DNA from: Candidatus Saccharimonadota bacterium | GTDB taxonomy: Archaea > Nanohalarchaeota > Nanosalinia > Nanosalinales > Nanosalinaceae | Direction of reading: 5' to 3' | Assembly (NCBI RefSeq): GCF_047555085.1 | Contig: NZ_CP180230.1 | Location: forward strand, 300,001 to 332,000 | DNA length: 32,000 nt | In this document: positions 1-32,000 of the stretch, in pieces | How positions within the stretch are numbered: position 1 is the stretch's first letter | Layout: every line of letters starts with the position of its first letter | The notes under the pieces: generated by a model | What the model saw: the letters and a program-made list of their open reading frames with translations, nothing else | Databases searched by the model: none | Told to the model about the DNA's origin: nothing | Program-made: the position numbers and the translations under genes

Positions 1-1522
1 TTTAGATACTAAAGATACTTTAGTTGCTCTGGAATTTCTCGCTCTATTCTACAATAGTCAAAAAGAGCTTATAAGAAAAATTATAGTTTCCGAAAACAAA
101 GAGCTATTCGTTAAGTCCCTCAAGATGTTTGATGAACATAATAGTAAGCTAGATCGAATCAAATCGGATATTAATTTCCGAGATATTTCGGATAACTCCG
201 AACCTCAAAAAGAAGATTCTGATATACTCGATAAGATAGATGATCTAAATCAAGAATTGGAAGAAACTCCTTTTGGGGTAGGTGCCTGGGTGTTTAGAGA
301 ATATGAGAACGGTAATCTTGACGAAGATTTCTTTAATAATGTAAGAGAGGAGGTAATAGGGAAATTTGAAAACAAATCTATCGGCGAAATCTCTAGTATC
401 TACTTTGAAATTCTAGAAAGCACTCCCTCTTACTGGAATAGTTGGCAAATGTCAGAGGAATTAGATGTTTTTGAAGGCGCAACTTCCATGGGAAGCCCTG
501 CTGCAGTTTCATGGATTCAAAATTTCTACTGCGGTCTAATGATTAGGAATATTAGCGACGATAAAATAGAGGAAATCTTAGAAAGAGAAGAAGAGTTCTC
601 AAATCCGATATCAGTAAGAAAATCAATCAAAGATAATATTGAAAGTCTCAAAGAACAAACTCAGAATTTTTCAACAGAAGAATCTCTAATGAGAGATATA
701 GAGGATATCCGGTCAAGAAAAGAAGCAGTAAGCAAAATTTTCGAAAATATTAAATCTGAGATAGAGACGGACGAAAGACAGGAAATAATCAATTCAGAAG
801 TGTCCGACTCTTTGGTTTCTGAGTTCAAAACAGGGCTTAGAGATAGTTGGGAGTCAAATGCTGATTTCAGGAAACTCTATAATGACTTGGGCAGATTTGA
901 AGAAAATTCATCAGAAGCTCCTGAAGAAGCTAGAGAGCTAGGGCTGAACAGAGTTTTCTACCGCAGTTATTTTGTGGAAGATTCTCCCAGAAACTGGGTT
1001 AGAAATGTAGATGATAACTGGGGTAGAGCTATAGCAAAAAAGGAAAATGAAGTGATTTTTGAGGAACTATTCGGCTCTATTGAGTTCCAGAAAATTTCAT
1101 GGGAAGAAATAGATTCCAGAATGTTAGATGCTGATATAAGCGGATTTGAGGATTCTCAGCCAATAATGCTTGTAGGAAATAGCCCTCGACTAAAATATAG
1201 AGCTAAAAATATAGAGAGATTAGAAATCAATGAAGAGAAAGGAAAATATCTCTATAACAACAAAGAAGTACCTATATACCATATCAACCATCTTAGAGAT
1301 AAATTAATAATCACAACCGCAGAGAGACTAGGAAGACTTCTCCAGTATTCAGAAGGAGAAAATCTATCAATAGAATTTAGTGAAAATATTCCTTCAGATG
1401 TCTCTAAAAACTTGGAATTAGAAGATCCCGAAACTAGAGTCTTGATTAAAGCATCAGAATCCTTTGAGGTTAAAGAAATACAGCAGGATAGTTCAACCAT
1501 CAGTTATGAAATCCAGGAATAA
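1..1522 (+). CDS. Hypothetical acidic protein, 5' end outside the window. The frame is open from nt 2, so the ORF-track Met at 125 is probably internal.
   Basis: There is no stop codon in this frame between nt 2 and 1522. The 465+ aa product is very D/E/N/S-rich, and I recognise no family motif. The DNA is clearly more AT-rich than the rest of the window and has no AGGCCT copy. Confidence 0.6.
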   Translation, partial: LDTKDTLVALEFLALFYNSQKELIRKIIVSENKELFVKSLKMFDEHNSKLDRIKSDINFRDISDNSEPQKEDSDILDKIDDLNQELEETPFGVGAWVFREYENGNLDEDFFNNVREEVIGKFENKSIGEISSIYFEILESTPSYWNSWQMSEELDVFEGATSMGSPAAVSWIQNFYCGLMIRNISDDKIEEILEREEEFSNPISVRKSIKDNIESLKEQTQNFSTEESLMRDIEDIRSRKEAVSKIFENIKSEIETDERQEIINSEVSDSLVSEFKTGLRDSWESNADFRKLYNDLGRFEENSSEAPEEARELGLNRVFYRSYFVEDSPRNWVRNVDDNWGRAIAKKENEVIFEELFGSIEFQKISWEEIDSRMLDADISGFEDSQPIMLVGNSPRLKYRAKNIERLEINEEKGKYLYNNKEVPIYHINHLRDKLIITTAERLGRLLQYSEGENLSIEFSENIPSDVSKNLELEDPETRVLIKASESFEVKEIQQDSSTISYEIQE

Positions 1523-1696
1523 ACACCTAATTATAAGATCAAATTTCCAATAGGTCTCATATTTGCTGAAGCTACTGAAAAGGAGTTACTGATTAAACTT
1601 TCTGGGCCTCTAATCAATTTTGTGAGTTATTCCAGTCCGGAAAAATCCTTGTATCGAAGATTCTTGATAGAGGCCTCTAGGGAGATGTTCTTGTAG

Positions 1697-2419
1697 ATGG
1701 GAAGGGCGAATAATTGGCGGAAGGAGTCTGAGGATGGCGAGAGTATTGTCTGGCTTCATGAGGGCGGATATGATTTCAGGCTTCGTGCGGATAAGGATGA
1801 GGATAAGAAGTGGGCCTTGAGTTTGTCCAGTGATATTTTGCCGGAGAAGTATGATAAAGAAGTTTTGACGATGGATACGAAGAAAAAGGCCCGGAGTATT
1901 GCTTTTGACTGGAGGAAGTCTCATACAGAATCCAGTGATTTACTGAAGGAAGTAGGCCTTTCTATGAGCAGTTCGAGGAACGTGTTCAATCCTTTCAACA
2001 TGAGTCTGGCGATGATGAATATTTTCTTGTTTCTTGCTTTGCTTCAGACGTGGAAGTTCATTGATCCGATCTTCGGGGAAATTTTTATCGGGATTGTTAT
2101 GGGAGCTGGAGGCCTGATTTTTCTTGTAGAGGCCTTTTACAAAGACGGCTTATTTAATTTGACAGCTCCGTTGCACAACGCGGATGAAGCTGTTTCTTTA
2201 CTTACAGGAACTTTCGCAGTCCTGGCCTCTTACGGCTATATAACTCAGTCAGAATTTTATTTGACGCATTTTTCAGGTGTTCAGGGAGGTATACTGGCCT
2301 ACATGGTCGCATACCTGATGCTACACTGGCTGAAGACAAGATTTATCGGATACACTCGTGTAACAGCTAGAGCGACAAAGAAAAAGGCCTTTAACTGGAA
2401 GAATGACTTGATGAAGTAG
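1697..2419 (+). CDS. Hypothetical membrane protein with a ~95-aa soluble N-terminal domain and about 4 predicted TM helices
   Basis: 240-aa ORF with an ATG start. It has hydrophobic stretches (MNIFLFLALLQ, IFIGIVMGAGGLIFLV, LLTGTFAVLASYGYI, GGILAYMVAYLML). I recognise no family. Confidence 0.6.
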   Translation: MGRANNWRKESEDGESIVWLHEGGYDFRLRADKDEDKKWALSLSSDILPEKYDKEVLTMDTKKKARSIAFDWRKSHTESSDLLKEVGLSMSSSRNVFNPFNMSLAMMNIFLFLALLQTWKFIDPIFGEIFIGIVMGAGGLIFLVEAFYKDGLFNLTAPLHNADEAVSLLTGTFAVLASYGYITQSEFYLTHFSGVQGGILAYMVAYLMLHWLKTRFIGYTRVTARATKKKAFNWKNDLMK

Positions 2420-2476
2420 ATTTTCGGATTTCTGATTTAGACAGGAATTTTATTCAGGCCTCTGTATAGAATTGTT

Positions 2477-2848
2477 ATGGATATCTATCTGGCCCATTCC
2501 TCGAGTATGGATTTTAGAGAAGATTTTTACAGGCCTGTAAAGGAAAGCAGCATAAGTGACGAGCATTCAGTCGTCTTCCCTCACGAAGATGAAGGCCTCT
2601 TCGATTCCAGAGAATTCTTCAGGGAAAAATGCGATCTAGTTGTAGCAGAAGTTTCAGAGGCCTCCACTGGCGCAGGTATAGAGCTTGGCTGGGCGGATGA
2701 AAAATCAGTTCCCATCCTGTGCATCCATCGGGAAGAAGGAAATCCCTCCTCCGCGATCAAAGCCGTCATGGAAAACATAGTCTCTTACTCAAGGCCCGAA
2801 GAAATCCCAGAGATAATCGAAGAGAAAATTAAAGAAATCAAAATTTAG
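2477..2848 (+). CDS. Nucleoside 2-deoxyribosyltransferase-like (Rossmannoid NDT/SLOG-class) small protein
   Basis: 123 aa. The core DLVVAEVSEASTGAGIELGWA matches the S/T-G-x-x-E-x-G-x-A catalytic-Glu signature typical of the nucleoside 2-deoxyribosyltransferase-like superfamily. Recognised by eye only. Confidence 0.5.
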   Translation: MDIYLAHSSSMDFREDFYRPVKESSISDEHSVVFPHEDEGLFDSREFFREKCDLVVAEVSEASTGAGIELGWADEKSVPILCIHREEGNPSSAIKAVMENIVSYSRPEEIPEIIEEKIKEIKI

Positions 2849-3447
2849 GCCTCAAAAATCTCTTCCCCAGCTCTACGCCAGTTCCTGTCCTCCTTTTTCG
2901 GATAGCCGATCGGTATCAAGAGTACAGGCCTCTCAGAATCCTTCAAGTCGAGTTTCTCAGAAAGTTTTGGCTGGCTGAATCCTCTTACCGGGCAGCTACC
3001 AATCCCAAAGTTTCTGCAGGCCAGCATGAAGAACGTCGCCGGGATCATCGTGTTTCTCGTTAGCCAGCCTGTCATGAATTCTTCGTCGCGGGCCTTGTAC
3101 CTCTCGTACATGTCTCGAAGATTCTCTGCTTTTTCCTCGTCGATCTTGCCCTCCTCAAGTTTATGGCTGAGGACTTCGTCGGCGTTGACATCTATCTCTT
3201 CATCTCCAACTAGAACTACTATTTTATCGGCGTACTGGATCCACCTGTTGACCGGTATCGCAGAATCTACGGCCTTTTCTTTGGCCTCTTGTGAATCCAG
3301 GACGATGAATCTGTACGGCTGTAAATTGAAGGCTGTCGGCGCCTTTGTCGTCAAGTCGAAAATTTTCTCCAGCGTTTCCTCTTTGACTTCTTCATCTGTG
3401 AACTTCTTGACGGATGACCAGTTTTCCATCGCGTCTTCGAGATCCAT
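2845..3447 (-). CDS. Nitroreductase-family (FMN-dependent) oxidoreductase
   Basis: 200 aa. The N-terminal SVKKFTDEEVKEETLEKIFDLTTKAPTAFNLQPYRFIVL is the classic nitroreductase-fold start. Its start abuts the stop of the upstream nth-like gene with no gap. Confidence 0.8.
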   Translation of the reverse strand: MDLEDAMENWSSVKKFTDEEVKEETLEKIFDLTTKAPTAFNLQPYRFIVLDSQEAKEKAVDSAIPVNRWIQYADKIVVLVGDEEIDVNADEVLSHKLEEGKIDEEKAENLRDMYERYKARDEEFMTGWLTRNTMIPATFFMLACRNFGIGSCPVRGFSQPKLSEKLDLKDSERPVLLIPIGYPKKEDRNWRRAGEEIFEA

Positions 3448-4170
3448 TTATTCCCAGGCCTCCGGAGGATACTCTTCAGGACTCAAATCGCCTTTGATAA
3501 CTTTTTCGTAGTAGCTGCAGTACTTTTTCAGCTTTGTATTTTCGCATGTAGGATTTCTGGCGGTGCAGTTGTTCTTCCCGTGCTCAATCATCAGCATATG
3601 GAAGCTGTTCTTGATCTCGTGAGGAACTGCTTCATTCAGAAGTTCATGCGCTTTTCCATTCGAAGCTGAGAAAGGAATCAGCCTGAATCTCTTGGCCAGC
3701 CTCTCCACGTGCGTATCGACGGGCATAACGTTGGCATCAAAGTGAAAATTCAGTAGAACACTTGCTGTCTTCGGGCCTATTCCTTTGATCTCTTCAAGCC
3801 AGGCCTGTGCCTCGGAGTCTTCCATCTCGCCGAGGAAATCCACAGAGTAATCCTCAGAATCTCCATGATCTCTCAAGGCCTTCAAAGTTCTCTGGATTCT
3901 TTTCGCTTTTGTCTCTGGAAGGCCTGCTGGATTGATGGAGTCTGCTAGTTTTTCGATAGAGGCCTCTTCGATTTCTCTGTAGTCTTTGGAGTCGTTGAAT
4001 AAGTTTTCAGCGGCTCTGGCAGTGTTTGTATCTGCTACGTTCTGTGAGAGGATCGTTATGAGAAGCTGTCTGACTCCGTCGTCGTTGTCATGCCAGTTCT
4101 GTTCTCCATACACATCTAGGAGGTCCTGATGAATGTTCCTGATTCTTTCCTCTGAGTTGTCGATTTCCAT
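3448..4170 (-). CDS. nth: Endonuclease III-like HhH-GPD DNA glycosylase/lyase
   Basis: The HhH motif IKGIGPKTASVLL carries the catalytic Lys, and VDTHVERLAKR carries the Asp. The C-terminal Cys region has only three Cys (C-x6-C-x8-C), not the canonical C-x6-C-x2-C-x5-C. Confidence 0.8.
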   Translation of the reverse strand: MEIDNSEERIRNIHQDLLDVYGEQNWHDNDDGVRQLLITILSQNVADTNTARAAENLFNDSKDYREIEEASIEKLADSINPAGLPETKAKRIQRTLKALRDHGDSEDYSVDFLGEMEDSEAQAWLEEIKGIGPKTASVLLNFHFDANVMPVDTHVERLAKRFRLIPFSASNGKAHELLNEAVPHEIKNSFHMLMIEHGKNNCTARNPTCENTKLKKYCSYYEKVIKGDLSPEEYPPEAWE

Positions 4171-4201
4171 GTCTCTGAGTTATACGCCAGTTCTGAAGTA
4201 T

Positions 4202-4612
4202 CTACGGTTTTTCGACTTCTATTTCTCCGCTCTGGATATCCTGGAGTGTTGAGCCGTAGAAAAGTGTGATCATCAATGTCACGAATACTGTGATTGTGGA
4301 TATCTCCGCGAGAGCTCTTGGGAAGCCTGTTTCTATCGTCTGGGCGTACATGCTCATCATGAATGCGAGGATTCCTGAAAATGCTCCAGCCCACCAGTTC
4401 CAGCCTTCACTTCTCTTGAAGAAAAGTTTAACATCGAACTGTTCTCTGAATTTTTTCGAGGCGTAGACTGTTGCCAGCAGAGAGATCACAGTGAAAAGAT
4501 AGATCATAGGCGTCTGTGAAACCTGATTTATGGCTGTAACAAGTATAAGAGCTGAAAATCCTGTGATCTCTATGCTTCTTCTCTCCCAGAGATTTCTTGC
4601 ATCCATATTCAT
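4202..4612 (-). CDS. Hypothetical membrane protein (about 4 TM)
   Basis: The ORF-track start at 4636 is a TTG that overlaps the upstream gene. The in-frame ATG at 4612 sits 7 nt after the upstream stop. The product has hydrophobic helices and no recognisable family. Confidence 0.55.
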   Translation of the reverse strand: MNMDARNLWERRSIEITGFSALILVTAINQVSQTPMIYLFTVISLLATVYASKKFREQFDVKLFFKRSEGWNWWAGAFSGILAFMMSMYAQTIETGFPRALAEISTITVFVTLMITLFYGSTLQDIQSGEIEVEKP

Positions 4613-4619
4613 AACTTGC

Positions 4620-5486
4620 TTACCTGATTTTTTCAATCTGTCTCTCTAGTGACGGCGCCCGGGCCTCTGTCCAGTAAGTACTGTCTCTGTAGCTTACGAT
4701 CCATGTGCCTGTCCTGAACTCTTTCTTGAAAGGCCTTCCCTTTTTCAGGGCCTCTACAACTCTCTTCATTTCCTCTGTTTCGTCGCCGTAATATGTTTCA
4801 TCGATCGCCTTCTGAAGGAACTGTTCTGAGAGATTTGAAGTATCCAGTTCAAACAGGTATCTGTCTCTGAGTTCGGAGCTGTATTCTGAAAGATTTTCGG
4901 CGACTTTACGGGCTGTGTAGTTGTAAACTTTTGTTGTTGTGTTCTCCTCGCTGTTTTTCGTGACTAGTATGCTGGAGTCTCCTCTTGTGATAACTGTTTC
5001 ATTTCTATCTGCGAGAACAGATTCTTCTTTTTCCTGTAGAGTATACGTTCTGTAGTACTTTATCCTGCTTATATTGCTGCCTGCACTGGCCTGATCAAAT
5101 ATCGAGTCCACAAAATCTTTTTCACCATCTGTCAGATTCACTTCGCTGCTCTGACTGTCCTGAACTCTTTCAGCGCTGTAAGTTACTCCGATCCTGTCCT
5201 CTGTACCTGCAACTGTCCGATTCAGGGAGTAAAGACTGCCTTTGTACAGCACAGGGACGCCATGATCCAGTACATCACTGGGAGGATTCTCTGTAGTCAG
5301 GAAACTTCCATTATCAGCTACTTTCCTGAAATCCGCATGCATATCCGATATATTCACTGAGGCCTTCTCCCCGAGTTCGGCACCTTCAACTTTTTCCATG
5401 CGCAGAGAGGCCTCTGCATCGATACAGCCGCTGGAGACTGCCACAAAAGCCAAAAGACCCAGCAAGAGAGCTTTATTCCGATTCAT
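4620..5486 (-). CDS. Secreted or lipid-anchored hypothetical protein
   Basis: The internal ATG at 5486 gives MNRNKALLLGLLAFVAVSSGC, a signal peptide with a lipobox-like SSGC. The remainder is hydrophilic with several N-x-S/T sequons. Confidence 0.6.
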   Translation of the reverse strand: MNRNKALLLGLLAFVAVSSGCIDAEASLRMEKVEGAELGEKASVNISDMHADFRKVADNGSFLTTENPPSDVLDHGVPVLYKGSLYSLNRTVAGTEDRIGVTYSAERVQDSQSSEVNLTDGEKDFVDSIFDQASAGSNISRIKYYRTYTLQEKEESVLADRNETVITRGDSSILVTKNSEENTTTKVYNYTARKVAENLSEYSSELRDRYLFELDTSNLSEQFLQKAIDETYYGDETEEMKRVVEALKKGRPFKKEFRTGTWIVSYRDSTYWTEARAPSLERQIEKIR

Positions 5487-5578
5487 TATGCCAGAAATCA
5501 GGCCTGGATTTTTATAGTATTCATCGTTTCTAATCCTCAAAATCTTTAAGCAACACAGTCGAATCCTTTGATAGTTCT

Positions 5579-7000
5579 ATGGCCTCGATAATCCTTCCCA
5601 ATCAGCTCTTCCCGGAACCCGTAGAAGAAGGGAAAAGATACCTTGTAGAACATCCGAAATACTTCACCGGGAAAAACTTCCATAAACAGAAAATACTTCT
5701 TCACAGGGCCTCAATGAAGGCCTACAACGAGGAAATCGATGCCGAGTACGTCGAGTTTTCCGAGGCCTCTGAAAAGTTTGAGGAAATTTTCCAGGAACAC
5801 GACGAGATCAGGATGTACGATCCCGTGGATCATGAAATACGGGAAAACTTTGAGACATTGGCGGAAAAATTTGATGCCGAGCTCAAGTTCCTGAAAAATC
5901 CTGGTTTCATGGCCTCAAGAAGTTTCAACGAAAAATACTTCGAAGAACACGAGTACTTCCAGCTCAGCTACTACAAGAGAATGAGAAAAAAGTTCGATGT
6001 ACTGATAGATGAAAGCGGAGGCCCTGTAGGCGGAAAATGGAGCTTCGATCCGGAGAACAGGAAGAAGATGCCACAGGATCTGGAAACACCGGAGATCCCG
6101 AAGTTTTTCTCGGATAAAGTAGAGGAAGCGAAGAAATACGTGGAGAAAAACTTTTCTGAGAATCCCGGCGATTTAGATGATTTTTTCTGGCCGACGACAC
6201 GTGAACAGGCCCTGGAAAATCTGGAGGATTTCCTGGAAAATCGGCTGGAAAAGTTCGGGGATTATCAGGATGCTATAGACTCGGATCTGAAGTTCGGCTT
6301 TCATTCACTGCTTTCCTCATCGATCAACATAGGCCTCTTGACTCCTGAAGAAGTCGTGGAGAAGACTCTGGAGAAGCATGAGGAGAAGGATTATCCTATG
6401 AACTCTCTGGAGGGATTTCTGCGTCAGATCATCGGCTGGCGAGAATTCATCCGGGCAACGTACATGCTGGAGCCAGAAATGAGAGACGCGAACTTCTGGA
6501 ACGCAGACAATAAACTTCCTGAAGAGTTCTACAACGCTGAGACAGGCCTTCCGCCGGTCGATGATTCTATACAACATGCTCTGGATAACGCTTACGCACA
6601 TCATATCGAGCGTTTGATGGTTCTCGGCAACGTGATGCTGTTGCTGGAGATCGACCCTGACGAAGTGTATGACTGGTTCATGGAGATGTTCATCGACAGC
6701 TATGAGTGGGTGATGGTGCCGAATATCTACGGCATGAGCCAGTACAGCTGGGAGAACATGATGACAAAGCCGTATATCTCATCTTCAAACTATATCAACA
6801 AGATGTCTCATTACGACGGCGGCGACTGGGAAGATGACTGGACAGGCCTTTACTGGAATTTTATCAAGAAGCATGAAGAGAAGATTGGAAATATTCAGAG
6901 GATGAGCTTCATGACTTCCACGCTAAACAGGATGAGTGAGGAGACTGTGGAGGAGCATTTGGAGAATGCCGAGGCCTTTAAGGAGAGTTTAGGCCTCTGA
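5579..7000 (+). CDS. Cryptochrome/photolyase-related protein of the PhrB/CryB (FeS-BCP, COG3046-like) class, containing no cysteine
   Basis: The blocks GFLRQIIGWREFIR, AHHIERLMVLGN, FIDSYEWVMVPNIYGMSQY and KPYISSSNYINKMS match the conserved C-terminal core of COG3046/FeS-BCP proteins. The 473-aa translation has zero Cys. Confidence 0.8.
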   Translation: MASIILPNQLFPEPVEEGKRYLVEHPKYFTGKNFHKQKILLHRASMKAYNEEIDAEYVEFSEASEKFEEIFQEHDEIRMYDPVDHEIRENFETLAEKFDAELKFLKNPGFMASRSFNEKYFEEHEYFQLSYYKRMRKKFDVLIDESGGPVGGKWSFDPENRKKMPQDLETPEIPKFFSDKVEEAKKYVEKNFSENPGDLDDFFWPTTREQALENLEDFLENRLEKFGDYQDAIDSDLKFGFHSLLSSSINIGLLTPEEVVEKTLEKHEEKDYPMNSLEGFLRQIIGWREFIRATYMLEPEMRDANFWNADNKLPEEFYNAETGLPPVDDSIQHALDNAYAHHIERLMVLGNVMLLLEIDPDEVYDWFMEMFIDSYEWVMVPNIYGMSQYSWENMMTKPYISSSNYINKMSHYDGGDWEDDWTGLYWNFIKKHEEKIGNIQRMSFMTSTLNRMSEETVEEHLENAEAFKESLGL

Positions 7001-7152
7001 TTTCTCCATCCGTCTTTTTATGATCCAGAGTGTCAGTGATACAAGGAAGATTAATGCTGCTTCTTTCCAGCTTACTGAGAAAGGTAGTGGGATGATCATA
7101 GATTGGTTCTACTCCTGTTGATTGAAAAAGAAATTAGAGGCCTTTTTTGGCC

Positions 7153-7332
7153 TTACTCGGTCTGAAGTGTTGAGAAGAATCCTGAGAAGAAGCTTGCGAA
7201 CGCTACAGCTATCAAAGCCCACTGAAGATCAGAGGACGGATATGCAAGTGAGACTGCGTAAGTTACAGCTACTGCGATTACGAGGCTGATTGCTCCGCTT
7301 GTGAACTCTTCTCTGTACTCGTCAATTTCCAT
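7153..7332 (-). CDS. Small hypothetical membrane protein (2 TM)
   Basis: 59-62 aa ORF with an acidic N-terminus (MEIDEYREEF) followed by two hydrophobic segments. No homology is recognisable. Confidence 0.35.
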   Translation of the reverse strand: MEIDEYREEFTSGAISLVIAVAVTYAVSLAYPSSDLQWALIAVAFASFFSGFFSTLQTE

Positions 7333-7415
7333 GAATATCAACTGAGGCCTCTTGATTGAAATTTCTGGTGGTGTCGAACGTTACAGCTAAAAATCTGGCG
7401 GCAGAAACACATGAC

Positions 7416-7910
7416 ATGGCGTTGACTCAGGCCCTGATTGCAAGCGTTTCGATCCAGATAATGACTGCAGCAGCCTTTCTTCTAGTTGCAGCATTCGGGA
7501 TAGGATACGCAGGGAGAGCTGTACGCAAAGCTCTTTCACACAAGTTTGAGGAGGAAACAATACTTGATCTCCTTGAAAGCATAACTAGAGGCCTTCTATG
7601 GTTCGCGGCTGTACTTGTTGCCTTAAGTATTCTCGGATTCGAAGGTATAGCAGCTTCACTCGGCACAGCAGCAGGATTTGTAGCGCTTGGAGTCTCATTC
7701 GCCCTGAAAAATGTTCTATCCGATACAGTAGCAGGGATATATCTTGCTAAAGATCCGGATTTCAACAATGGCGACACTGTAGAAGTAGACGGCTCCAAAG
7801 GAGAAGTTACTGAAGTAGGCCTCAGAAAATCACGTTTAAGGCTTGAAGACGGTAACTTGAGAGTTATTAACAACAGCGATGTAGAGAAGAAATGGACGTT
7901 AATAGAATAA
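7416..7910 (+). CDS. Small-conductance mechanosensitive channel (MscS-family), short form
   Basis: The pore-helix and beta-domain signature is GVSFALKNVLSDTVAGIYLAKDPDFNNGDTVEVDGSKGEVTEVGLRKSRLRLEDG. The ORF-track start at 7356 is a TTG, and the first ATG is at 7416. Confidence 0.7.
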   Translation: MALTQALIASVSIQIMTAAAFLLVAAFGIGYAGRAVRKALSHKFEEETILDLLESITRGLLWFAAVLVALSILGFEGIAASLGTAAGFVALGVSFALKNVLSDTVAGIYLAKDPDFNNGDTVEVDGSKGEVTEVGLRKSRLRLEDGNLRVINNSDVEKKWTLIE

Positions 7911-7927
7911 TTTTTCAGAAATTATTT

Positions 7928-8329
7928 TTATCCGTCCTGGCTTTTCAGCATCAAGTATCCAAGCACTAGCGTAGATATTACTCCGAGTAGAGGCCTCAAG
8001 GGATCGACATATGCCATTATTGCTGATGTTGACAGGAATGCAAGCAGTAAGCCATTGCAGATCGGACAGCTGAATGCGAGGAATCCTGTGACTCCGCCTA
8101 GCGCTGAAAGCCTTGAATCAGTTACAGTGCATTTTTCTTTGCCGAAGTAGATCCCTGCCAGGATTGAAGTCGTGAACAGGAAAGTATAGTCCAGAAATGT
8201 GATTGGTACCATCCTGACGTAGAAAGGAGTCGGTATGAGGCCTGTAACTACGCCCGTAACTGTGAAGAAAAATGTAGAGGCGGCTACAGACTTTTTCACG
8301 TCATAGCCCTTTACTTCTTCAATTTTCAT
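7928..8329 (-). CDS. Membrane protein with an intramembrane CxxC (FSCPICNG), paralogous to the upstream gene
   Basis: 133 aa with about 4 TM. It shares the block LG-x3-GFLA-x2-C-x2-C-x4-L with the 176-aa neighbour. It is the third gene of the DsbA-like operon, with a 16-nt gap. Confidence 0.6.
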   Translation of the reverse strand: MKIEEVKGYDVKKSVAASTFFFTVTGVVTGLIPTPFYVRMVPITFLDYTFLFTTSILAGIYFGKEKCTVTDSRLSALGGVTGFLAFSCPICNGLLLAFLSTSAIMAYVDPLRPLLGVISTLVLGYLMLKSQDG

Positions 8330-8345
8330 AATGAGATGTTCTTTT

Positions 8346-8876
8346 CTATATTTTGCATGTATCAGGATCCCCGTTACGGACTATCAGCGCCGCCAGGATG
8401 GATATGCCGGCTAGACGAAATATGTTGCCTCCGAAAGGCATAGAGGCCAGTACTCCTCCGAAGCCGAGGAGGCTTAATACTCCCAGTCCGCATGATGCGC
8501 ATCCACCTGCCAAGAATCCCGGTAAAGCACCAAGACTGCTCAGATCCATCCTGTTCATACGTAACTGGATGACTGTATTCGTCATCGTTACGCCGACCAT
8601 GAAAGCGAATACAAGAGTCAGGAAGAGGCCTGTGTATCCTGATTCCATAAATATGCCGGAAAGACGTGTGATGAATGCTATCGGCCAGTGCTGTAGGCCT
8701 GAACTCAGCATCTGGAAGGAGTAGACAGGCCTTGTGGAGAAGATCACCAGTGAAAAAGTTATTACTGTCCCCAGCAACGTACCTGTAGCTCTGGATCTGC
8801 TGGAGACTGCGCCTTTGATTCCCTGGAAGAATTCCTGTTTCCAGGCCTTGGGACTGATTTTTACTTCAACTGTCAC
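8346..8876 (-). CDS. Membrane protein with an intramembrane CxxC (GGCASCGLG), paralogous to the downstream gene
   Basis: 176 aa with multiple TM helices. The GTG start lies 6 nt after the DsbA-like stop. It carries the motif LGALPGFLAGGCASCGLGVLSLLGF. Confidence 0.6.
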   Translation of the reverse strand: MTVEVKISPKAWKQEFFQGIKGAVSSRSRATGTLLGTVITFSLVIFSTRPVYSFQMLSSGLQHWPIAFITRLSGIFMESGYTGLFLTLVFAFMVGVTMTNTVIQLRMNRMDLSSLGALPGFLAGGCASCGLGVLSLLGFGGVLASMPFGGNIFRLAGISILAALIVRNGDPDTCKI

Positions 8877-8882
8877 AGGTCT

Positions 8883-9701
8883 TCACTGGCTTTTTATCGT
8901 GTTGATTGCCTGTTCGAATCTTGAGATCGGCTGTGCTCCTGATATCTCGACGAAGCCTGTCTCTTTGTTCCCTACGAAGAATGCAGGGGTTCCCAGCCTT
9001 CCAAGATTTCTGAGTGCGTTGCTTTTGTCCTGATCTGCCTCGGAGTTGTTCGAGTTCTGGTAACACTCCATAACTTTGTCGGTGTCAAGGCCTAGATCAT
9101 CGGAAATACCTCTGAACGTCTCTTCTGGCCCCGGACTGCCTCCCTGCATCCAGCTGTCTCTTCTCTCGAAGATTTCATCGTGGAAGTCCCAGTAACTTTC
9201 TTCCTCGTTCTCGTAGACACAGTTCGCCACTTTATGAGCCTCAGGCCCGTTAGGATGAAGATTTGGAACAGGATAATCCTTCATGATGAACTCTACTTCA
9301 CCGGTATCCACGTACTGGTTTTTGAGAGAGTCACCGATATTCATCTGATCTATAGGAATCCTTCCGGAAGCATCAATGCCCTGCCATTCCGCACAGAAAG
9401 GACATCCAAAGTCTGTGTACTCCACTACCTTTATCGGAGCATCACTTTCCCCCATACTTGGCTCGCCTTCAAGCTCGATACCGTCAAGACTCACTAACTC
9501 AGTGCCTGAATCATCTGAACTATCTGAACCGTCACCGGAGTTAGTATTCTGTGAGTCAGGAGAATCCTGGGCATCAGAAGTGCTTAGAGCAGTTCCGGCA
9601 GCCAGGCCTCCAAGCCCTCCGATCAAAAGTCCAAGTACAAGAGAAGCCACAGCCGCCTGCTTCACAGTGAACTCCAGCTTCAGGCCTTCAGAATCACTCA
9701 T
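8883..9701 (-). CDS. Membrane-anchored DsbA/thioredoxin-fold thiol:disulfide oxidoreductase
   Basis: It has an N-terminal TM anchor (AAVASLVLGLLIGGLGGLAAG), then a D/S-rich linker, then a Trx fold with FGCPFCAEW (CPFC) and a GTPAFFV cis-Pro-type block. Confidence 0.75.
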   Translation of the reverse strand: MSDSEGLKLEFTVKQAAVASLVLGLLIGGLGGLAAGTALSTSDAQDSPDSQNTNSGDGSDSSDDSGTELVSLDGIELEGEPSMGESDAPIKVVEYTDFGCPFCAEWQGIDASGRIPIDQMNIGDSLKNQYVDTGEVEFIMKDYPVPNLHPNGPEAHKVANCVYENEEESYWDFHDEIFERRDSWMQGGSPGPEETFRGISDDLGLDTDKVMECYQNSNNSEADQDKSNALRNLGRLGTPAFFVGNKETGFVEISGAQPISRFEQAINTIKSQ

Positions 9702-9853
9702 TGAGATCCCTCTTGAAGGCCTGTTCTCTGATTTTGGAAAAGTAGTGCAGGTGAATTCTCAAGAACATTTGATTTCATATAGATACAAGGTATCCATACG
9801 ATATTAAAGGCCTGAGTGTAATCTCTGAAACATGGTTTCGAGGTCGATACCAC

Positions 9854-10228
9854 ATGTCTGAAAAGGAGGATAAGATTCCGGTATGGTGTAAAAGCGAGGA
9901 CTGGTGTGCACTGAAATCTACTTCAAAGATTCTGGGTCATAAATGGGTGCCGGTCATCACTTATCACATCCACGACAACACTCCAGCAAGATTTTCCGAG
10001 ATAAAACAGGAGATAGGTGATATAACGAATAAGACTCTGAGCAATAACCTGGACAGGATGGAGGAACAGGGCGTAGTGGACAGAAAAGTTGAGAAAGAAA
10101 AACCTGTCAAGATAACTTATGAGCTTACTGATTTTGGCGAAAGCCTGATCCCGCTTGTTGAAGACATGATTTCATGGGGACAGGAAAATCTGAGGGAGGG
10201 AGAAAAGGAAGAGGCCTGGATAACTTGA
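9854..10228 (+). CDS. HxlR-family winged-helix transcriptional regulator
   Basis: The stretch CALKSTSKILGHKWVPVITYHI...RFSEIKQEIGDITNKTLSNNLDRMEEQGVVDRKV...ITYELTDFG is the typical HxlR/DUF24 layout. Confidence 0.8.
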   Translation: MSEKEDKIPVWCKSEDWCALKSTSKILGHKWVPVITYHIHDNTPARFSEIKQEIGDITNKTLSNNLDRMEEQGVVDRKVEKEKPVKITYELTDFGESLIPLVEDMISWGQENLREGEKEEAWIT

Positions 10229-10273
10229 CCGCTATACAGTATATTTTTACGCAGTGAGGCCTAAATTTTTTCT

Positions 10274-10498
10274 ATGGAAGAAAATGTAGGAGATACGGAC
10301 AGGATTGTAAGGATCGTGCTTGGAGCAGTAGCCGGATTACTATCACTTGGTACGCTGGCTGATGTACTGCCTTCCAGTCTGGCGTTGCCTGAGATCGCAT
10401 CGCCGATCCTTGGAGTCCTAGCGATCGCACTGCTGGGAACAGCATTCACAAGCAAGTGCGGGCTATACTCTGCACTAGGCCTCAATACCAAAGAATAG
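10274..10498 (+). CDS. DUF2892 / YgaP-like small membrane protein
   Basis: 74 aa. It has an N-terminal D-R-I-V-R-I-V-L-G stretch, two TM helices, and a C-terminal conserved Cys context (FTSKCGLYSALGLNT). Confidence 0.5.
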   Translation: MEENVGDTDRIVRIVLGAVAGLLSLGTLADVLPSSLALPEIASPILGVLAIALLGTAFTSKCGLYSALGLNTKE

Positions 10499-23484: not shown

Positions 23485-25134
23485 CTACTCCGTCACCTTT
23501 ACAGGAACTCCTTTCTCCTTCAACAGTTCCACCTGACGCTTCACGAAGTCCTCTTCATTAGAGCCTTTCGTTGCTATCATGTAGACCTGTGCATCGCCAA
23601 AAGGCCTCATAACTCTTCCAGCTCTCTGAGTTGCCTGCCTTCTTGATCCTCCCTGGCCTGACATTATGATACCGACTTCGGTGTCCGGAAGATCAAGGCC
23701 TTCATCGCCGATCCTTGAAACGATGATAGTATTCATCTCATCGTTCCTGAAGTCCTCAAAGTACTCTTCTCTCTCCTCAAACTCTGTCTCACCTGAAATA
23801 AACGGCACATCGAACTGGTCTGAGAGATCTTCTCCCTGATCGATCCAGTCGCAGAAAATAATTGTCTTCTCGCCGTCGTGTTCTTCAAGAAGCTGTTCAA
23901 GATTCTTTTTCTTCGCTGGATTCTTCGAGGCGATAATCGCCTTCTTGATACCGGAGGCCTGCTCGTATTCATGCCTGTGATAATCAGAGGCCCACTCCAC
24001 AAGCTGGATCTCCACATCGGGCTTCACAACATGGCCTTCACGGAAAAATCTGGCCCAGTCACTTCCGATCTCAGGCCCAATCAAGGCGAAAATCTCCCGC
24101 TCTTTACTGTCCTCTCTGACAGGAGAAGCGGAGAGGCCTATCCTTCTCGTTGACTGAAGTGAAGCTGTCTTCCTGAAAAGCTTGGAAGGAATATGGTGTA
24201 CTTCGTCGAAAATTATCAGGCCCCACTCGTTTCTGAAAAGCTTTGTCTTGTTCGCAGCCATGTGATAAGTCGCGATAGTGACGTCCTTCATCTGCTTTGT
24301 ATCGCCGTGATACTCTCCGATCTGATCCTCTGTCAAAGCAGTTTTGTCAAGTATCTCACGCTTCCACTGATTGACAAGAGAACGCTGAGGCACAAGGACG
24401 AGCGTCGGACTGTCGATCTTCGACATCAATCCGATAGAAGTAACTGTCTTCCCTGATCCAGCCGGATTCGCAAGTACAGCTGCTCTCTCCTCGTAAGCTC
24501 TTTCAACGTACTCTTTCTGATAATCTCTCAATTCAATGTTGAGATCTGCCCCGATCTTTTTGTCGGATTCACGGAACTTCGAATTGTCCTCTACAGGATA
24601 GCCTTTCTTCAGAAGAGCTTTCTTGATCTCGGCTCTTGACTTGGCTCCCATAGCGATCCTTGACTTTGTATCGGAAAGATCGACGGAAAGATTGTCTCTG
24701 ACATCGTCAAGGCCTCTTGCCCACTCCATCCTCTCAGGATCAGTGGATACAAGCGCGTGATATCTTCCTTCGTGCTCGATCGAGAAGATCTCCTGCTTCT
24801 CGTAAGTCCTCTGAAGCCATTCCAGAAAATGCGGATAATTCCCGACTAATCTAGTATATTTTTCCTTCAACTCTTCCAGAGAAAGATTCGAATTCCATAT
24901 ATCCATCTCCTGGACCTGGAACTTGTAGTGATCTTCACTACTCGTCTCCATATGAGCAATATTCGAGAACTCGTTCAAAGTTTCTTCAGTAGGATTCGTC
25001 AGTATAATTTCTCTCTGAGGCTCGAAGAACACCACCTGATCCTCGTTAGAGGCCTTCAGTCCATCGATAAGTTCTTCCTTAGAAAGTTCTTCAAGTTCAT
25101 CACGCGACATATCATCCAAGTTTCGGCTCGTCAT
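23485..25134 (-). CDS. xpb: XPB/Rad25 (SSL2)-type SF2 DNA repair helicase
   Basis: It has LRDYQKEYV (Q/motif I region), NPAGSGKT (Walker A), IIFDEVHH (DEVH), GLSASPVRED (motif III with the XPB-specific RED motif) and QRAGRVMR (motif VI). The ORF-track start at 25155 is a TTG, and the first ATG is at 25134. Confidence 0.85.
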   Translation of the reverse strand: MTSRNLDDMSRDELEELSKEELIDGLKASNEDQVVFFEPQREIILTNPTEETLNEFSNIAHMETSSEDHYKFQVQEMDIWNSNLSLEELKEKYTRLVGNYPHFLEWLQRTYEKQEIFSIEHEGRYHALVSTDPERMEWARGLDDVRDNLSVDLSDTKSRIAMGAKSRAEIKKALLKKGYPVEDNSKFRESDKKIGADLNIELRDYQKEYVERAYEERAAVLANPAGSGKTVTSIGLMSKIDSPTLVLVPQRSLVNQWKREILDKTALTEDQIGEYHGDTKQMKDVTIATYHMAANKTKLFRNEWGLIIFDEVHHIPSKLFRKTASLQSTRRIGLSASPVREDSKEREIFALIGPEIGSDWARFFREGHVVKPDVEIQLVEWASDYHRHEYEQASGIKKAIIASKNPAKKKNLEQLLEEHDGEKTIIFCDWIDQGEDLSDQFDVPFISGETEFEEREEYFEDFRNDEMNTIIVSRIGDEGLDLPDTEVGIIMSGQGGSRRQATQRAGRVMRPFGDAQVYMIATKGSNEEDFVKRQVELLKEKGVPVKVTE

Positions 25135-25232
25135 GCCTTCACACGTTACAGCCAAAGCTTTTTATCTCTGCACACCGATTTTTCCTCGCCATACCTTTGA
25201 AACTGGAAAAATTCTATCAAATCGGACTTGCT

Positions 25233-25266: not shown

Positions 25267-25860
25267 ATGAAGGCTCAGCTGAAGCGGAAGCTTTCGCAGG
25301 TAGAAGACTTTGAAGATCCAAAGATCTCGATGGAGCAGTACGTCACACCTCCGCATCTCGCCGCAGATCTTGTTTTCACAGCTCACATGCAGGGCGATCT
25401 TGAAGGAAAAGTAGTTGATCTCGGCACAGGTACGGGAATACTTGCTATAGGAGCTGCACTTATGGGATCAAAAGTTATAGCAGTTGAAAAAGATGAAGAA
25501 GCCCTGAAAATCGCCAGAGAAAATGCAAAGAATCTTGGTGTATCTGAAGAAATCGAATTTGTACATTCTGGTGTTGAAGAATTTTCTGAGGCCTGTAATA
25601 CTGTTTTGATGAATCCTCCTTTCTCACAACACAGTGAAGAAGGATTAAAGTTCTGGGAGGCTGCAACGATGATTTCTGAGAAAGTTTACGGTATCTCCCC
25701 TGAGTCCAGCCGTGAAGGTATTAAAAGTTTCATCGAGTCTTCAAGACATAGAGTGGTCGAACAGCTGGAGTATCAGATTGATCTCCCGGCGACTTACGGT
25801 TTCCATACAAAGGAAAGCCGTGAGACACTGGTCGACCTCATAATCACGGAGAAAAGATAA
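25267..25860 (+). CDS. SAM-dependent N6-adenine-type methyltransferase (COG2263 / METTL5-like putative RNA methylase)
   Basis: It has the SAM motif I VVDLGTGTGILAIGAAL, an acidic loop AVEKD, and the catalytic NPPF (VLMNPPF). Confidence 0.8.
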   Translation: MKAQLKRKLSQVEDFEDPKISMEQYVTPPHLAADLVFTAHMQGDLEGKVVDLGTGTGILAIGAALMGSKVIAVEKDEEALKIARENAKNLGVSEEIEFVHSGVEEFSEACNTVLMNPPFSQHSEEGLKFWEAATMISEKVYGISPESSREGIKSFIESSRHRVVEQLEYQIDLPATYGFHTKESRETLVDLIITEKR

Positions 25861-27222: not shown

Positions 27223-27651
27223 ATGGGCCTGACTTCATGGATTCTCTGGCACGGCGAAAAAATTGGATCAAGTATATTATCCAGATTTTTCTGGCCTCCA
27301 GCCAGCGCCTCGGCAGTTATTCTTGACGGCGAGGAGATCCTTGTAGTCGATAAAAGTGATTACCTGATGCTTCCGGGAGGCCTCCTGGAGAGAGGAGAAA
27401 ACTTTGAACAGGCAGTCGAGAGAGAAGTACGTGAAGAGACAGGCCTTGAAGTAGAAGTTTTGGAGGAGATCGACGAGTTCGTTAAAGACTTCGCAGGCGT
27501 GGAAAAAATATTCACGGCCACTGTCAAAGATGGAGAACTAGAGTCTTCATGGGAAGGCACTCCGAAGTATATTTCGCTGGGAGAGGCCTCTGATAGGAGA
27601 TGGCGTTGGAATCGTGATATAAAGGATCTGATCGAAAAAGCCCAACGCTAA
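27223..27651 (+). CDS. NUDIX hydrolase
   Basis: It has the Nudix box GGLLERGENFEQAVEREVREETGL (G-x5-E-x7-R-E-x2-E-E-x-G). Confidence 0.9.
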   Translation: MGLTSWILWHGEKIGSSILSRFFWPPASASAVILDGEEILVVDKSDYLMLPGGLLERGENFEQAVEREVREETGLEVEVLEEIDEFVKDFAGVEKIFTATVKDGELESSWEGTPKYISLGEASDRRWRWNRDIKDLIEKAQR

Positions 27652-30181: not shown

Positions 30182-30203
30182 AGAGGCCTTTTTTGAGGCC
30201 TCT
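30182..30203 (-). terminator. Hairpin made from two AGGCCT copies (AGAGGCCT-tttttg-AGGCCTCT) downstream of the NDP-sugar pyrophosphorylase gene
   Basis: It has a perfect 8-bp stem and a 6-nt loop, 10 nt after the stop at 30214. A T-rich run follows on the transcribed strand. Confidence 0.45.
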
Positions 30204-30213
30204 CGGAATTTTT

Positions 30214-31179
30214 TTAGAGCTGTGTGTGTTCTCCGATCAGTGCGTCGTTGAGGTTGACGTCTTTTATTTTTGCGTGCTGATCTAGGATAGAGTTTCTGAC
30301 TTCGGAGTCTATGATTTTTGCGTTGGGGAAGACGATGCTTTTCTTGACTTTGGAGTTTTTGACTTCTGCGCCTTCCATGACGATGGAGTCGTCGTCGACT
30401 TCAGAGTCCTTGACTGTTCCCTCGACGATTTTGTCGTCTGTTATGCTTGCGACTGCGTTGAGGTATCCCTGCGGTGTTCCGACGTCGAACCATTCTCCGT
30501 CGAAGCTGTAAGCGTACATCTCTCTTTCCTCGTGAGCCCATTCGATAAGCCTTCCTGGCTCATCCAGGTACTGATCCTCCGGTATATCCGTCTCTGCGAA
30601 GTGTTCCTCGTATCTGTCGAAGAGATCCAGATCTTCCTCTGGGAAGAAGTACCAGGCGATAGAGGCCAGTGTGGAAGGAGGGACATCAGGCTTCTCCTTG
30701 AATCCTACGATCCTGTCGTCGTCGACATCCACGATACCGAACTGTGAGGCCATCTCCTCGCTTTCGACATCGTAGACAACGTTCGCAGGAGCATCTTTCT
30801 CCTTCACAAATTCTATGAAGTCTGCTCCGTCAAAGCTCTGATAGTTATCTCCTCCGACGATCACGAGATCGTCTGAGAGGCCTTCGCTTTCTATCAAGTT
30901 GATTATGGCGCCGATAGTACCTGGCTTGTCGTGTTCGTTGTCCTGATCCTCTGAAACAACTCTAACATCTTCGAAGTCAGAGGCCTCGACGTATTCGTCG
31001 AAGTCGGGAGCGAACTTGTCGTTCGTCGAGATTATTACTTCGTCGACTTCGCCTTCAAGGTCGTCGAGAATGTATTCGATTATAGGTTTCTCACCGAGCG
31101 GAAGAAGTGGCTTCGCCCGATGCTTCGTAACAGGCCACAGACGTGTGGCGTGACCGCCAGCTAGAATTATCGCTTTCAT
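30214..31179 (-). CDS. NDP-sugar pyrophosphorylase (sugar-1-phosphate nucleotidyltransferase) with a C-terminal left-handed beta-helix
   Basis: It has MKAIILAGGHATRLWPVTKHRAKPLLPLG (G-x-G-x-R-L signature), then hexapeptide-like repeats at the C-terminus. The ATG at 31179 is preferred over the TTG at 31197. Confidence 0.85.
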   Translation of the reverse strand: MKAIILAGGHATRLWPVTKHRAKPLLPLGEKPIIEYILDDLEGEVDEVIISTNDKFAPDFDEYVEASDFEDVRVVSEDQDNEHDKPGTIGAIINLIESEGLSDDLVIVGGDNYQSFDGADFIEFVKEKDAPANVVYDVESEEMASQFGIVDVDDDRIVGFKEKPDVPPSTLASIAWYFFPEEDLDLFDRYEEHFAETDIPEDQYLDEPGRLIEWAHEEREMYAYSFDGEWFDVGTPQGYLNAVASITDDKIVEGTVKDSEVDDDSIVMEGAEVKNSKVKKSIVFPNAKIIDSEVRNSILDQHAKIKDVNLNDALIGEHTQL

Positions 31180-31270
31180 CGCTATCAGATAATACAAAGT
31201 AATACATCACAAGTTAAAAACTCTTACCTTCCGATGGAGATAAATCAATCAGGCCTCTCAAATAACTACG

Positions 31271-32000
31271 ATGGGAGTAATCCTTCACGTCGACATGGAT
31301 GCATTCTACGCCTCAGTAGAGGCCCAGAGAAGAAATATTTCGGGCCCGATAGTAGTCTGCGTCTACTCCGGCCGGACAGAAGACTCCGGAGCAGTATCCA
31401 CGTGCAGCTATGAGGCCCGAGAGCTTGGTATACACGCAGCGATGCCGATAAAAAACGCGAAAAAGATCGCAGATGAATCAGGTAAAGAAGTAAACTTCGT
31501 TGGAATGGACAAAGAGTACTACGATCAGTTCTCCGACGACATAAAAGAAGAGATACTTGAAAAACACACGGAAACGATTGAAAAGGCCTCTATCGACGAA
31601 TTCTATCTTGAACTGGAGACAGAAAACTTTGATGAAGCAGAAGATATAGCGAAAAAGATCCAGACCTCTGTCAATGAAGATTTCGGCGTAACATGTTCTG
31701 TAGGAGTCGCTCCGAACAAGCTAGTGGCCAAGATTGCTTCAGATCAGGAAAAGCCAGAAGGCATCACAGTAATCAGGCCTGAAGAAGTCAAAAATTTCAT
31801 GAGAGGCCTGAAAATGGATGACATACACGGTATAGGAGGAAAGACTGTGGAAAAGCTGAATGATATTGGAATAAGTTCTGTAGAGGCCTTGGCTGAGTCT
31901 GATCCTGCTTTACTGGTCAGAGAATTCGGTGAGAAGCAGGGCCTCAAGTTGAGGGAAAAAGCCAGGGGAGAAGACGATTCTGAGGTCAAGGAGACGCTTC
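31271..32000 (+). CDS. dinB: Y-family DNA polymerase IV (Dpo4/DinB), 3'-truncated by the window edge; not in the ORF track
   Basis: I read this manually as MGVILHVDMDAFYASVE...ASIDEFYLE...SVGVAPNKLVAKIASD..KP.G...IHGIGGKT. These are the canonical Y-family catalytic motifs, and the frame stays open to the end of the window. Confidence 0.9.
   Translation, partial: MGVILHVDMDAFYASVEAQRRNISGPIVVCVYSGRTEDSGAVSTCSYEARELGIHAAMPIKNAKKIADESGKEVNFVGMDKEYYDQFSDDIKEEILEKHTETIEKASIDEFYLELETENFDEAEDIAKKIQTSVNEDFGVTCSVGVAPNKLVAKIASDQEKPEGITVIRPEEVKNFMRGLKMDDIHGIGGKTVEKLNDIGISSVEALAESDPALLVREFGEKQGLKLREKARGEDDSEVKETL

Follow-up and report, generated by a model that had tools for sequence, protein, structure and literature searches.

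A hyper-abundant AGGCCT palindrome in the genome of Candidatus Nanosalina sp. VS9-1 and in some other Nanohaloarchaeota

Distribution of AGGCCT across the Window

The sequence analyzed here, referred to as the window, is a 32,000-base stretch (GC 45.2%) of the 1,046,238 bp genome of Candidatus Nanosalina sp. VS9-1, a member of the Nanohaloarchaeota (contig NZ_CP180230.1, positions 300,001 to 332,000; coordinates below count from the first base of the window), and the element of interest is the palindromic hexamer AGGCCT. A first-pass annotation, made from the letters alone, had described the DNA as archaeal and had counted by hand about 140 copies of this word where base composition predicted a single-digit number. 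All three statements were borne out: the organism, identified through exact matches of its proteins, is an archaeon, the exact count is 139, and the mean of 100 dinucleotide-preserving shuffles is 7.26 (maximum 13), giving a 19-fold excess. AGGCCT is the top-ranked of all hexamers, and the next in rank, GAGGCC and GGCCTC, are words that overlap it. The copies are dispersed from 1671-1676 to 31884-31889, with 114 in coding sequence and 25 in intergenic DNA or at gene edges. As the word is its own reverse complement, strand skew is impossible, unlike the case of oriented words such as Chi and KOPS.

About 40 genes were called using longest open reading frame (ORF) rules, a heuristic procedure in which doubtful calls were checked against relatives, and 35 of them contain at least one copy, in agreement with the earlier remark that the word is found inside almost every coding sequence as well as in spacers. 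The 114 coding copies occupy all three codon phases, with 24 read as AGG-CCT, 38 as nAG-GCC-T and 52 as nnA-GGC-CTn. Examples are the Arg-Pro pair at 2531-2536 (+), and, within a photolyase-related gene, GAG-GCC-T (Glu-Ala-x) at 5763-5768 (+) and nnA-GGC-CTn (x-Gly-Leu) at 6544-6549 (+), the phases of which had been given correctly at first pass. Three + strand genes had also been said to end with a TAG stop codon embedded in the word; those at 2846 and 14956 stand, but the one at 10496 closes merely a 74-aa + strand ORF and is doubtful because this overlaps a conserved ORF on the opposite strand (10261-10545).

Copies are scattered without regular spacing. Counts per kb have a mean of 4.34 and a variance of 4.10, as expected of a Poisson-like process, and the median gap of 152 is 0.69 times the mean gap, as in an exponential distribution; the quasi-periodicity reported for highly iterated palindrome 1 (HIP1) of cyanobacteria is not seen for AGGCCT in the window. 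No clear association with gene starts or ends was found either, with six sites located 6-21 nt upstream of start codons against about 4.4 by chance.

Markov models of order 0, 1, 2, 3 and 4 predict 6.3, 7.2, 24, 62 and 128 copies, respectively. The first-pass annotation had proposed a comparison with models of order 3 to 5 and a two-fold margin, and the observed count lies near that margin at order 3 and within it at order 4. For a hexamer, however, such a comparison is circular, and high-order models were set aside because they are fitted on the very signal under test: 139 of 170 AGGCC pentamers (82%) and 139 of 172 GGCCT pentamers (81%) lie within AGGCCT itself. Relatives were gathered with the VS9-1 GltX protein, giving 14 loci from genomes and 22 from metagenomes of Nanohaloarchaeota (L numbers below), and these were classed as enriched or non-enriched from fragments of 1.4-22 kb. 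When the window is pooled with twelve enriched relative loci, there are 625 copies in 174 kb against 32.5 expected. The excess is real, at about 20 times expectation, and AGGCCT displays the property that characterizes the HIP class, that of a short palindrome many-fold above compositional expectation.

Protein-Preserving Controls

A by-product of base composition, codon usage and the favored dipeptides (E-A, R-P, G-L) of an acidic halophile proteome would be a simple explanation, and the residues E, A, G and L are indeed common, while the order-4 Markov expectation comes close to the observed count (a value that suffers from the circularity just described). The coding sequences were shuffled by permuting synonymous codons within each gene, a procedure that retains the protein, its dipeptides and the codon usage of the gene. 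Over 300 runs this gave 17.9 ± 3.4 copies (maximum 28) compared with the 114 observed, a 6.4-fold excess, and each codon phase taken singly was enriched 6-7 fold; permutation of whole codons gave 8.6. The excess therefore survives the dipeptide control that had been set at the outset as a test capable of refuting it, and the argument that no single favored codon pair could be the cause is upheld by the enrichment in every phase. Among all 4096 hexamers examined with the synonymous shuffle, AGGCCT scored z = 25, the other high scorers all overlap it, and no other palindrome was significant. GTAC, considered as a second iterated word and serving also as a control of the method, showed an apparent 2.3-fold excess that vanished under the same shuffle, being wholly accounted for by codon usage.

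The use of available positions is close to complete. Arg-Pro pairs in the window are spelled AGG-CCT in 24 of 26 cases, and AGGCCT occupies 112 of the 145 positions where the protein permits it (77%); occupancy in non-enriched relatives is mostly 0-10%, reaching about 23% at most in L011 and L006. Relatives with the same proteins and a similar GC content show background counts, and the highest enrichment is in spacers (7.25 copies per kb of intergenic DNA vs 3.99 per kb of coding sequence). The synonymous shuffles, the orthologue comparison and the spacer density together rule out composition, codon usage and dipeptide preference, the probability of which is negligible.

Other palindromes behave differently in the window. 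CTAG is scarce (49 vs 125 in the dinucleotide model, and 44 vs 64.7 in the synonymous shuffle) and GCCGGC is rare (1 vs 7.2 expected), which is ordinary palindrome avoidance occurring alongside the AGGCCT excess.

Spacers, Flanking Positions and One-Letter Variants

Fully intergenic DNA holds 23 perfect sites and just six one-letter variants, summed over all 18 kinds, whereas about 18 variants per site would be expected under neutrality. Assuming equilibrium, this deficit translates roughly into a 70-fold advantage in retention for changes toward the word over those away from it, which corresponds to a scaled coefficient of about 4.

Beyond the hexamer, the preference continues weakly and symmetrically outward. 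When synonymous positions are taken in sense orientation, C at +1 is found in 41% of cases (18% background) and G at -1 in 45% (24% background), while T at -1 is avoided (3% vs 22%). This extends the word to GAGGCCTC, a longer palindrome noted at first pass, which occurs 28 times in the window. Such symmetry of the flanks would be expected if a symmetric protein reads double-stranded DNA, and does not fit an RNA signal.

One-letter variants indicate which letters matter most. Those altered at the outer positions are over-represented in enriched genomes, with observed/expected ratios for AGGCCC/GGGCCT of 2.85 (0.49 in non-enriched genomes), for AGGCCA/TGGCCT of 1.94 (1.02) and for AGGCCG/CGGCCT of 1.76 (1.26). 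The six kinds of variant in the GGCC core have ratios of 0.8-1.5 and are not above non-enriched genomes; the deamination-type variants among them show only a slight relative deficit (AGGTCT/AGACCT, 1.08 vs 1.32; AGGCTT/AAGCCT, 1.14 vs 1.25). Plain mutational decay of sites that had lost their value would make C-to-T core variants the commonest. The pattern points instead to a strict requirement for, or restoration of, the core and to a laxer reading of the outer A and T.

Copies might also have been carried about by a small dispersed mobile or repeated element containing AGGCCT, similar to miniature inverted-repeat transposable elements (MITE) or repetitive extragenic palindromes (REP), and some intergenic copies do have alike flanks (tagAGGCCTct) and occur in pairs. 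One such pair, 8 nt apart, lies between convergent genes at 19350-19363 (AGGCCTAGAGGCCT), and a hairpin-capable pair at 30184-30201 (AGGCCTTTTTTGAGGCCT) lies 13 nt past the stop codon of the - strand gene 30214-31197; a copy plus partial copy that could form a hairpin is found in a 355-nt spacer at 7138-7153 (AGGCCTTTTTTGGCCT). Conservation, however, does not extend past ±3 nt around AGGCCT in the window, the repeat search returned just families of 16-32 nt that are 65-95% identical and seeded by AGGCCT itself, with about 30 nt as the greatest family length, and 82% of copies are in frame in conserved genes without indels relative to orthologues. Flank analysis, repeat search and alignments thus rule out a mobile element, which has practically no probability left.

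Origin and Turnover of Sites in Orthologous Genes

In codon alignments of orthologous genes, the conserved peptides Arg-Pro, x-Gly-Leu and [E/K/Q]-Ala-x are spelled with AGGCCT in enriched genomes and with assorted synonymous codons (AGGTCT, CGGATT, CGACCG and others) in non-enriched genomes, with no indels. AGGCCT arises by substitution, not insertion. In gltX, an Arg-Pro pair at 15747-15752 (+) that is conserved in all relatives is AGGCCT in the three enriched relatives that could be aligned, while eight of nine non-enriched relatives use other synonymous codons (CGGCCC, CGGCCG, AGACCG, CGACCG and others) and the ninth, L011, has AGGCCT. At the photolyase-related site 6544-6549, the enriched L007 also has AGGCCT and the non-enriched relatives differ (AAAGCT in L010, AGGTTT in L013).

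Some sites involve a change of amino acid. At 16499-16504 (+) in gltX, the window, L007 and L012 encode E-G-L, and the others E-T-L or E-S-L (AACCCT, AAGCCT). An x-G-L site of AGGCCT type at 16586-16591 (+) is found in four enriched genomes (the window, L001, L002 and L012), compared with E-D-V, K-D-A, S-G-V and similar peptides in the enriched L007 and in non-enriched relatives. The effect is visible in totals for aligned codons: the window has 302 tripeptides compatible with the word vs 218 in non-enriched orthologues (1.39x), and 270 vs 277 when compared with enriched orthologues (0.97x). The word accordingly accumulates by point substitution in spacers, at synonymous positions in all phases and, measurably, also via amino-acid changes.

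Sites are conserved above background. Between enriched genomes 33-100% of sites are in the same position (40-83% where at least nine window sites could be aligned), compared with 11-23% for other hexamers. Even so, the nearest enriched pair, the window and L015 (GltX 89% identical), shares just 20 of 50 and 20 of 38 sites, so AGGCCT sites turn over.

Distribution among Nanohaloarchaeota

Enrichment is not a general property of the phylum. Thirteen non-redundant loci (L001, L002 (SG9), L007, L012, L014, L015, L020, L021, L022, L024, L025, L031 and L033) are enriched, with 2.6-4.6 AGGCCT per kb, and the word is usually their top hexamer. Low or intermediate values, 0.0-0.75 per kb, were found in L003-L006, L008-L011, L013, L016, L017, L026-L028, L032 and L034-L036. 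Cultured representatives exist for both states: Ca. Nanohalovita haloferacivicina BNXNv is enriched (2.41 per kb) and Ca. Nanohalococcus occultus SVXNc is not (0.24 per kb). Among named genomes, the enriched side comprises VS9-1, BNXNv (CP107255.1), SG9 (CP012986.1) and the Nanohalobium genomes, and the background side SVXNc (CP104395.1), CP180231.1, Nanosalina J07AB43 and NHA25 (JALDAJ01). Non-enriched loci, when pooled, carry 61 copies in 184 kb against 39 expected (40-53 in a separate estimate), so that avoidance of AGGCCT in these relatives, which would have hinted at a circulating StuI-type restriction system, is not supported overall. Another palindrome, GGATCC, is almost absent from the non-enriched L006, L009 and L011 (0-1 vs 5-12 expected), and this suggests a BamHI-type restriction system in those lineages.

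Enriched and background genomes are interleaved on a GltX tree, a single-gene neighbor-joining tree without support values. The window and the enriched L015 are sister to L016, L017 and L018, of which L016 and L017 are non-enriched; L025 and L026 form a sister pair, and L010 falls inside an enriched clade. This interleaving implies at least three or four switches of state. A switch is also seen within one contig, L018 (Ga0102939_1000431, 1-15400), whose first 7.1 kb hold 14 copies and whose other 8.3 kb hold none. Its left part is nearest to the enriched L020, L024 and L002, its right part to the non-enriched L016 and L017; natural recombination and chimeric assembly are the two explanations.

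Viral sequences were also inspected. Among the matches listed in a pattern scan of IMG/VR for AGGCCT-dense viruses, most were chance or tandem-repeat matches. A viral or plasmid-like sequence of 6.65 kb with a terminal repeat (L043, 1-6654; IMGVR_UViG_3300025172_000014) has AGGCCT as its joint-commonest hexamer, with 13 copies, 10 of them unique, and possibly represents a mobile element from an enriched nanohaloarchaeon. Another viral sequence (L038, 1-3639; IMGVR_UViG_3300029432_000018; GC 0.36) has an iterated word of its own, TTAAGGCC(T), which is present 15-16 times in 3.6 kb.

These patterns bear on the possibility that an abundant, symmetric DNA-binding protein recognizes AGGCCT, with a role in the nucleoid, in segregation or in self-marking for defense, and that each site is weakly selected. 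A symmetric palindrome with graded tolerance at its outer positions is what such a protein might recognize, sites are kept above background, and the scaled selection coefficient needed is just about 4. Binding-site selection nevertheless sits poorly with random spacing and with a near-saturation of permissive positions that exceeds any density requirement; the nearest enriched pair has only about 40-50% of sites in common, and the repeated, complete loss in sister lineages speaks against an essential structural role. We regard a binding protein of this kind as quite improbable.

Stretches Free of AGGCCT

Two stretches of the window lack the word. Positions 1-1670 (GC 0.35) should hold 3.9 copies at the genome-wide enrichment after correction for GC (P = 0.02). 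They include an ORFan at 125-1522 (465-507 aa) and are probably part of a recently acquired island that extends past the left end of the window. The second stretch, 17089-18748 (GC 0.40), should hold 5.6 copies on the same basis (P = 0.004). Within it, a segment of about 0.8 kb at 17261-18067 (GC 0.36-0.37, no AGGCCT) is missing from the enriched L012, carries an ORFan at 17519-17908 (GC 0.37) and lies directly against the 3' end of a tRNA gene, a placement typical of integrated elements. The segment is likely to be a recent insertion that has not yet been "written over". Neither ORFan matched a Pfam, NCBIfam or PHROG family or had a viral relative in IMG/VR. The tRNA gene concerned, 18073-18228 (-), is an Rfam match of 156 nt, long enough to contain an intron, that is not reported by ARAGORN; it adjoins a tRNA-Val(GAC) gene at 18359-18433 (-).

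Scarcity in recently acquired DNA is a trait of uptake sequences, and zero copies of AGGCCT lie in 1-1670 and 17089-18748. The main rival explanation is that the word is a signal for DNA uptake or self-recognition, comparable to the uptake signal sequence (USS) of Haemophilus and the DNA uptake sequence (DUS) of Neisseria and as has been proposed for HIP1, in which case conspecific DNA bearing it would be imported, or protected and recombined, in preference to other DNA, site-bearing alleles would spread by molecular drive, and lineages losing the receptor would lose the word as well. An even spread over the whole genome, through genes and spacers alike, would follow from this, as would the absence from likely foreign DNA, a lineage-specific presence resembling dialects and a strong core with a weak extended consensus. 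A modest fixation bias would suffice, and the abrupt change of state in L018 possibly reflects exchange between lineages. HIP1 itself reportedly makes transformation more efficient and co-varies with genes for DNA uptake (preprint 10.64898/2026.06.24.733823). A 6-bp palindrome would discriminate poorly, however, about 20-fold as judged by density, and no competence or uptake system is reported for Nanohaloarchaeota in the comparative papers searched or encoded in the window. Known uptake signals are asymmetric motifs of 9-12 nt that occur about once per kb. AGGCCT, a 6-bp palindromic core with weak flanks of ±3 nt, has no such asymmetric motif, and its density of 1 per 230 bp is about five times greater. 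An uptake or self-recognition signal is on balance somewhat unlikely.

Search for a Driver Gene and Gene Content of the Window

Genes of the window were scanned with Pfam and NCBIfam, all loci were scanned for C5, N4/N6 and Vsr motifs, and the 44 ORFs confined to enriched loci were compared to Pfam, and none of these scans gave a driver candidate. A [DN]PPY methyltransferase at 25267-25860 was rejected, as it is HemK-like and is also present in non-enriched relatives. The EndoIII-like HhH-GPD gene at 3448-4170 (-) was considered as a possible Mig-type T:G glycosylase; its match to Mig.MthI is weak (E = 1e-5), the protein is nearest to Deinococcus EndoIII-1, and it was kept as a lead only. This glycosylase is at least 90% identical to its BNXNv counterpart, compared with about 75% at the DNA level for the rest of the region. 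The sole published methylome of the Nanohaloarchaeota, that of SVXNc, has the motif GDGcHC, and this is a strain without the AGGCCT excess.

The window is rich in DNA-repair genes. Besides the HhH-GPD glycosylase there are genes for a photolyase-related protein (5579-7000, +), an XPB helicase (23485-25155, -), a NUDIX hydrolase (27223-27651, +) and a Y-family polymerase (31271-32000, +). Two overlapping - strand ORFs (12405-13586 and 13483-14550), each with an MMPL/RND transporter domain, look like a split or two-part transporter, and the same layout is present in L011. In BNXNv and several relatives (L159, L001 and L005 were compared), a gene for an MscS-like protein is directly beside gltX. 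In the window (7928-15274) the two are separated by about 7 kb that includes genes for a thioredoxin/DsbA-like protein, HxlR- and MarR-type regulators, a CARDB surface protein, the MMPL pair and glutaredoxin.

A Possible Mechanism

A genome-wide force acting at the level of double-stranded DNA favors the creation and retention of exact AGGCCT. The bias suffices to saturate permissive codon contexts and alter the composition of proteins, the word is lacking in low-GC stretches that look recently acquired, and the state is switched on or off between whole lineages. One sequence-recognizing factor that is easily gained or lost could supply such a force, and it would most likely be a site-specific DNA methyltransferase. 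The methyl mark may bias mismatch or recombination repair toward the strand carrying the site, producing a ratchet like that proposed for HIP1, and in lineages that lost the factor AGGCCT would decay to background. AGGCCT can be read as a HIP-type palindrome whose cause is most likely a methyltransferase mark that biases repair toward the site-bearing strand. This is our first choice among the explanations considered and is offered tentatively, as it falls a little short of being probable in its own right.

Several points weigh against it. No DNA methyltransferase, Vsr or other candidate driver was found in the window (about 3% of the genome) or in about 480 kb of related loci, a small fraction of each genome. 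BNXNv, the one enriched strain whose gene inventory is published, is reported to have a type III Mod/Res pair only, and such systems usually recognize asymmetric sites and methylate adenine (PMC10266531). Pure T:G repair of the Vsr type cannot account for the fixed outer A and T, and the C-to-T neighbors of AGGCCT are not clearly depleted. Part of the sharing of sites between enriched genomes may reflect saturation of the same permissive positions and not inheritance. Finally, the gene calls are heuristic, the fragments of relatives are short, and the tree is built on one gene without support.

Significance

Taken as a whole, we think it rather more probable than otherwise that AGGCCT is the first archaeal HIP, present in some Nanohaloarchaeota, and that it is written by a single factor prone to gain and loss, acting either through a methylation-directed repair ratchet or through self-DNA recognition and uptake, and reshaping proteins as it does so. 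The puzzle of why some genomes fill with a single short palindrome dates back some 30 years, to the description of HIP1 in 1993, and the present case is independent of HIP1 in that it involves another domain of life, another word and a higher density. It also provides a natural experiment. The trait is on or off in close relatives, complete genomes represent both states, and co-cultures are available for BNXNv (on) and SVXNc (off); the causal gene should therefore be findable by presence and absence, and the modification state can be tested. In a minimal genome of 1 Mb, a bias at the DNA level has measurably shifted the proteins, word-compatible tripeptides outnumbering those of non-enriched orthologues by 39%. 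In practice, AGGCCT is a sharp marker by which nanohaloarchaeal contigs can be binned, foreign DNA recognized and chimeric or recombinant contigs exposed.

Comparison with Known Systems

In Escherichia coli, the Dcm methyltransferase and the Vsr endonuclease, which acts on T:G mismatches, together raise the frequency of the methylated site CCWGG. The effect is well under 2-fold, concerns the methylated C only and is accompanied by depletion of the T-containing neighbor. AGGCCT differs in being about 20-fold enriched, in having all six positions fixed and in showing no clear depletion of its C-to-T neighbors.

USS and DUS are over-represented in all reading frames, scarce in foreign DNA, divided into lineage dialects and accumulated by drive. 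AGGCCT resembles them in its genome-wide excess, its presence in all frames, its scarcity in likely foreign DNA and its lineage specificity. The USS and DUS systems have known competence machinery and a receptor; we know of no such machinery or receptor in nanohaloarchaea.

The literature search, which was incomplete in coverage and so gives absence of evidence only, returned no report of AGGCCT enrichment in Nanohaloarchaeota and no archaeal HIP. The same hexamer is the site of a StuI-type system of Alcanivorax borkumensis, where it is methylated on both strands as AgGCcT (PMC12128166), yet it is hyper-abundant in VS9-1, where StuI-type enzymes would cut unmodified DNA once in about 230 bp. 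Genomes usually avoid the sites of active restriction systems (PMC4687349), and since AGGCCT is in 19-fold excess, an active cognate endonuclease is unlikely.

The closest parallels are found in cyanobacteria. In a recent preprint, alternate cyanobacterial HIPs such as CAGGCCTG, GGGATCCC and TCGATCGA are described as accompanied by a methyltransferase of matching specificity (Elhai 2015, Xu 2018, via preprint 10.64898/2026.06.24.733823). The first of these, CAGGCCTG, has the AGGCCT core in common; the alternate HIPs are described as moderately abundant only, and the flanks are C...G, whereas G...C (GAGGCCTC) is preferred here.

HIP1 (GCGATCGC) was the comparison made at first pass, and it has gained support from the spread by substitution, the use of all codon phases, the retention at orthologous positions, the bias of variants to the outer letters and the variation among lineages. 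Both words are short palindromes far above expectation in genes and spacers, spread by substitution, conserved above background, patchy among lineages and surrounded by outer-letter variants. For HIP1, Elhai (2015) (PMC4390886) reports one-letter variants biased to the first and last letters, a bias taken there as a sign of a methyltransferase recognizing the inner letters. Two causes have been proposed, a methyltransferase-linked repair ratchet (PMC4390886) and an uptake signal (preprint 10.64898/2026.06.24.733823). AGGCCT was found without a cognate methyltransferase in the window or related loci and has Poisson-like spacing, while HIP1 is described as quasi-periodic. HIP1 is an octamer of cyanobacteria occurring about once per kb; AGGCCT is a hexamer of different sequence in a DPANN archaeon, occurs about once per 230 bp, and is a trait that flips on and off among close relatives.

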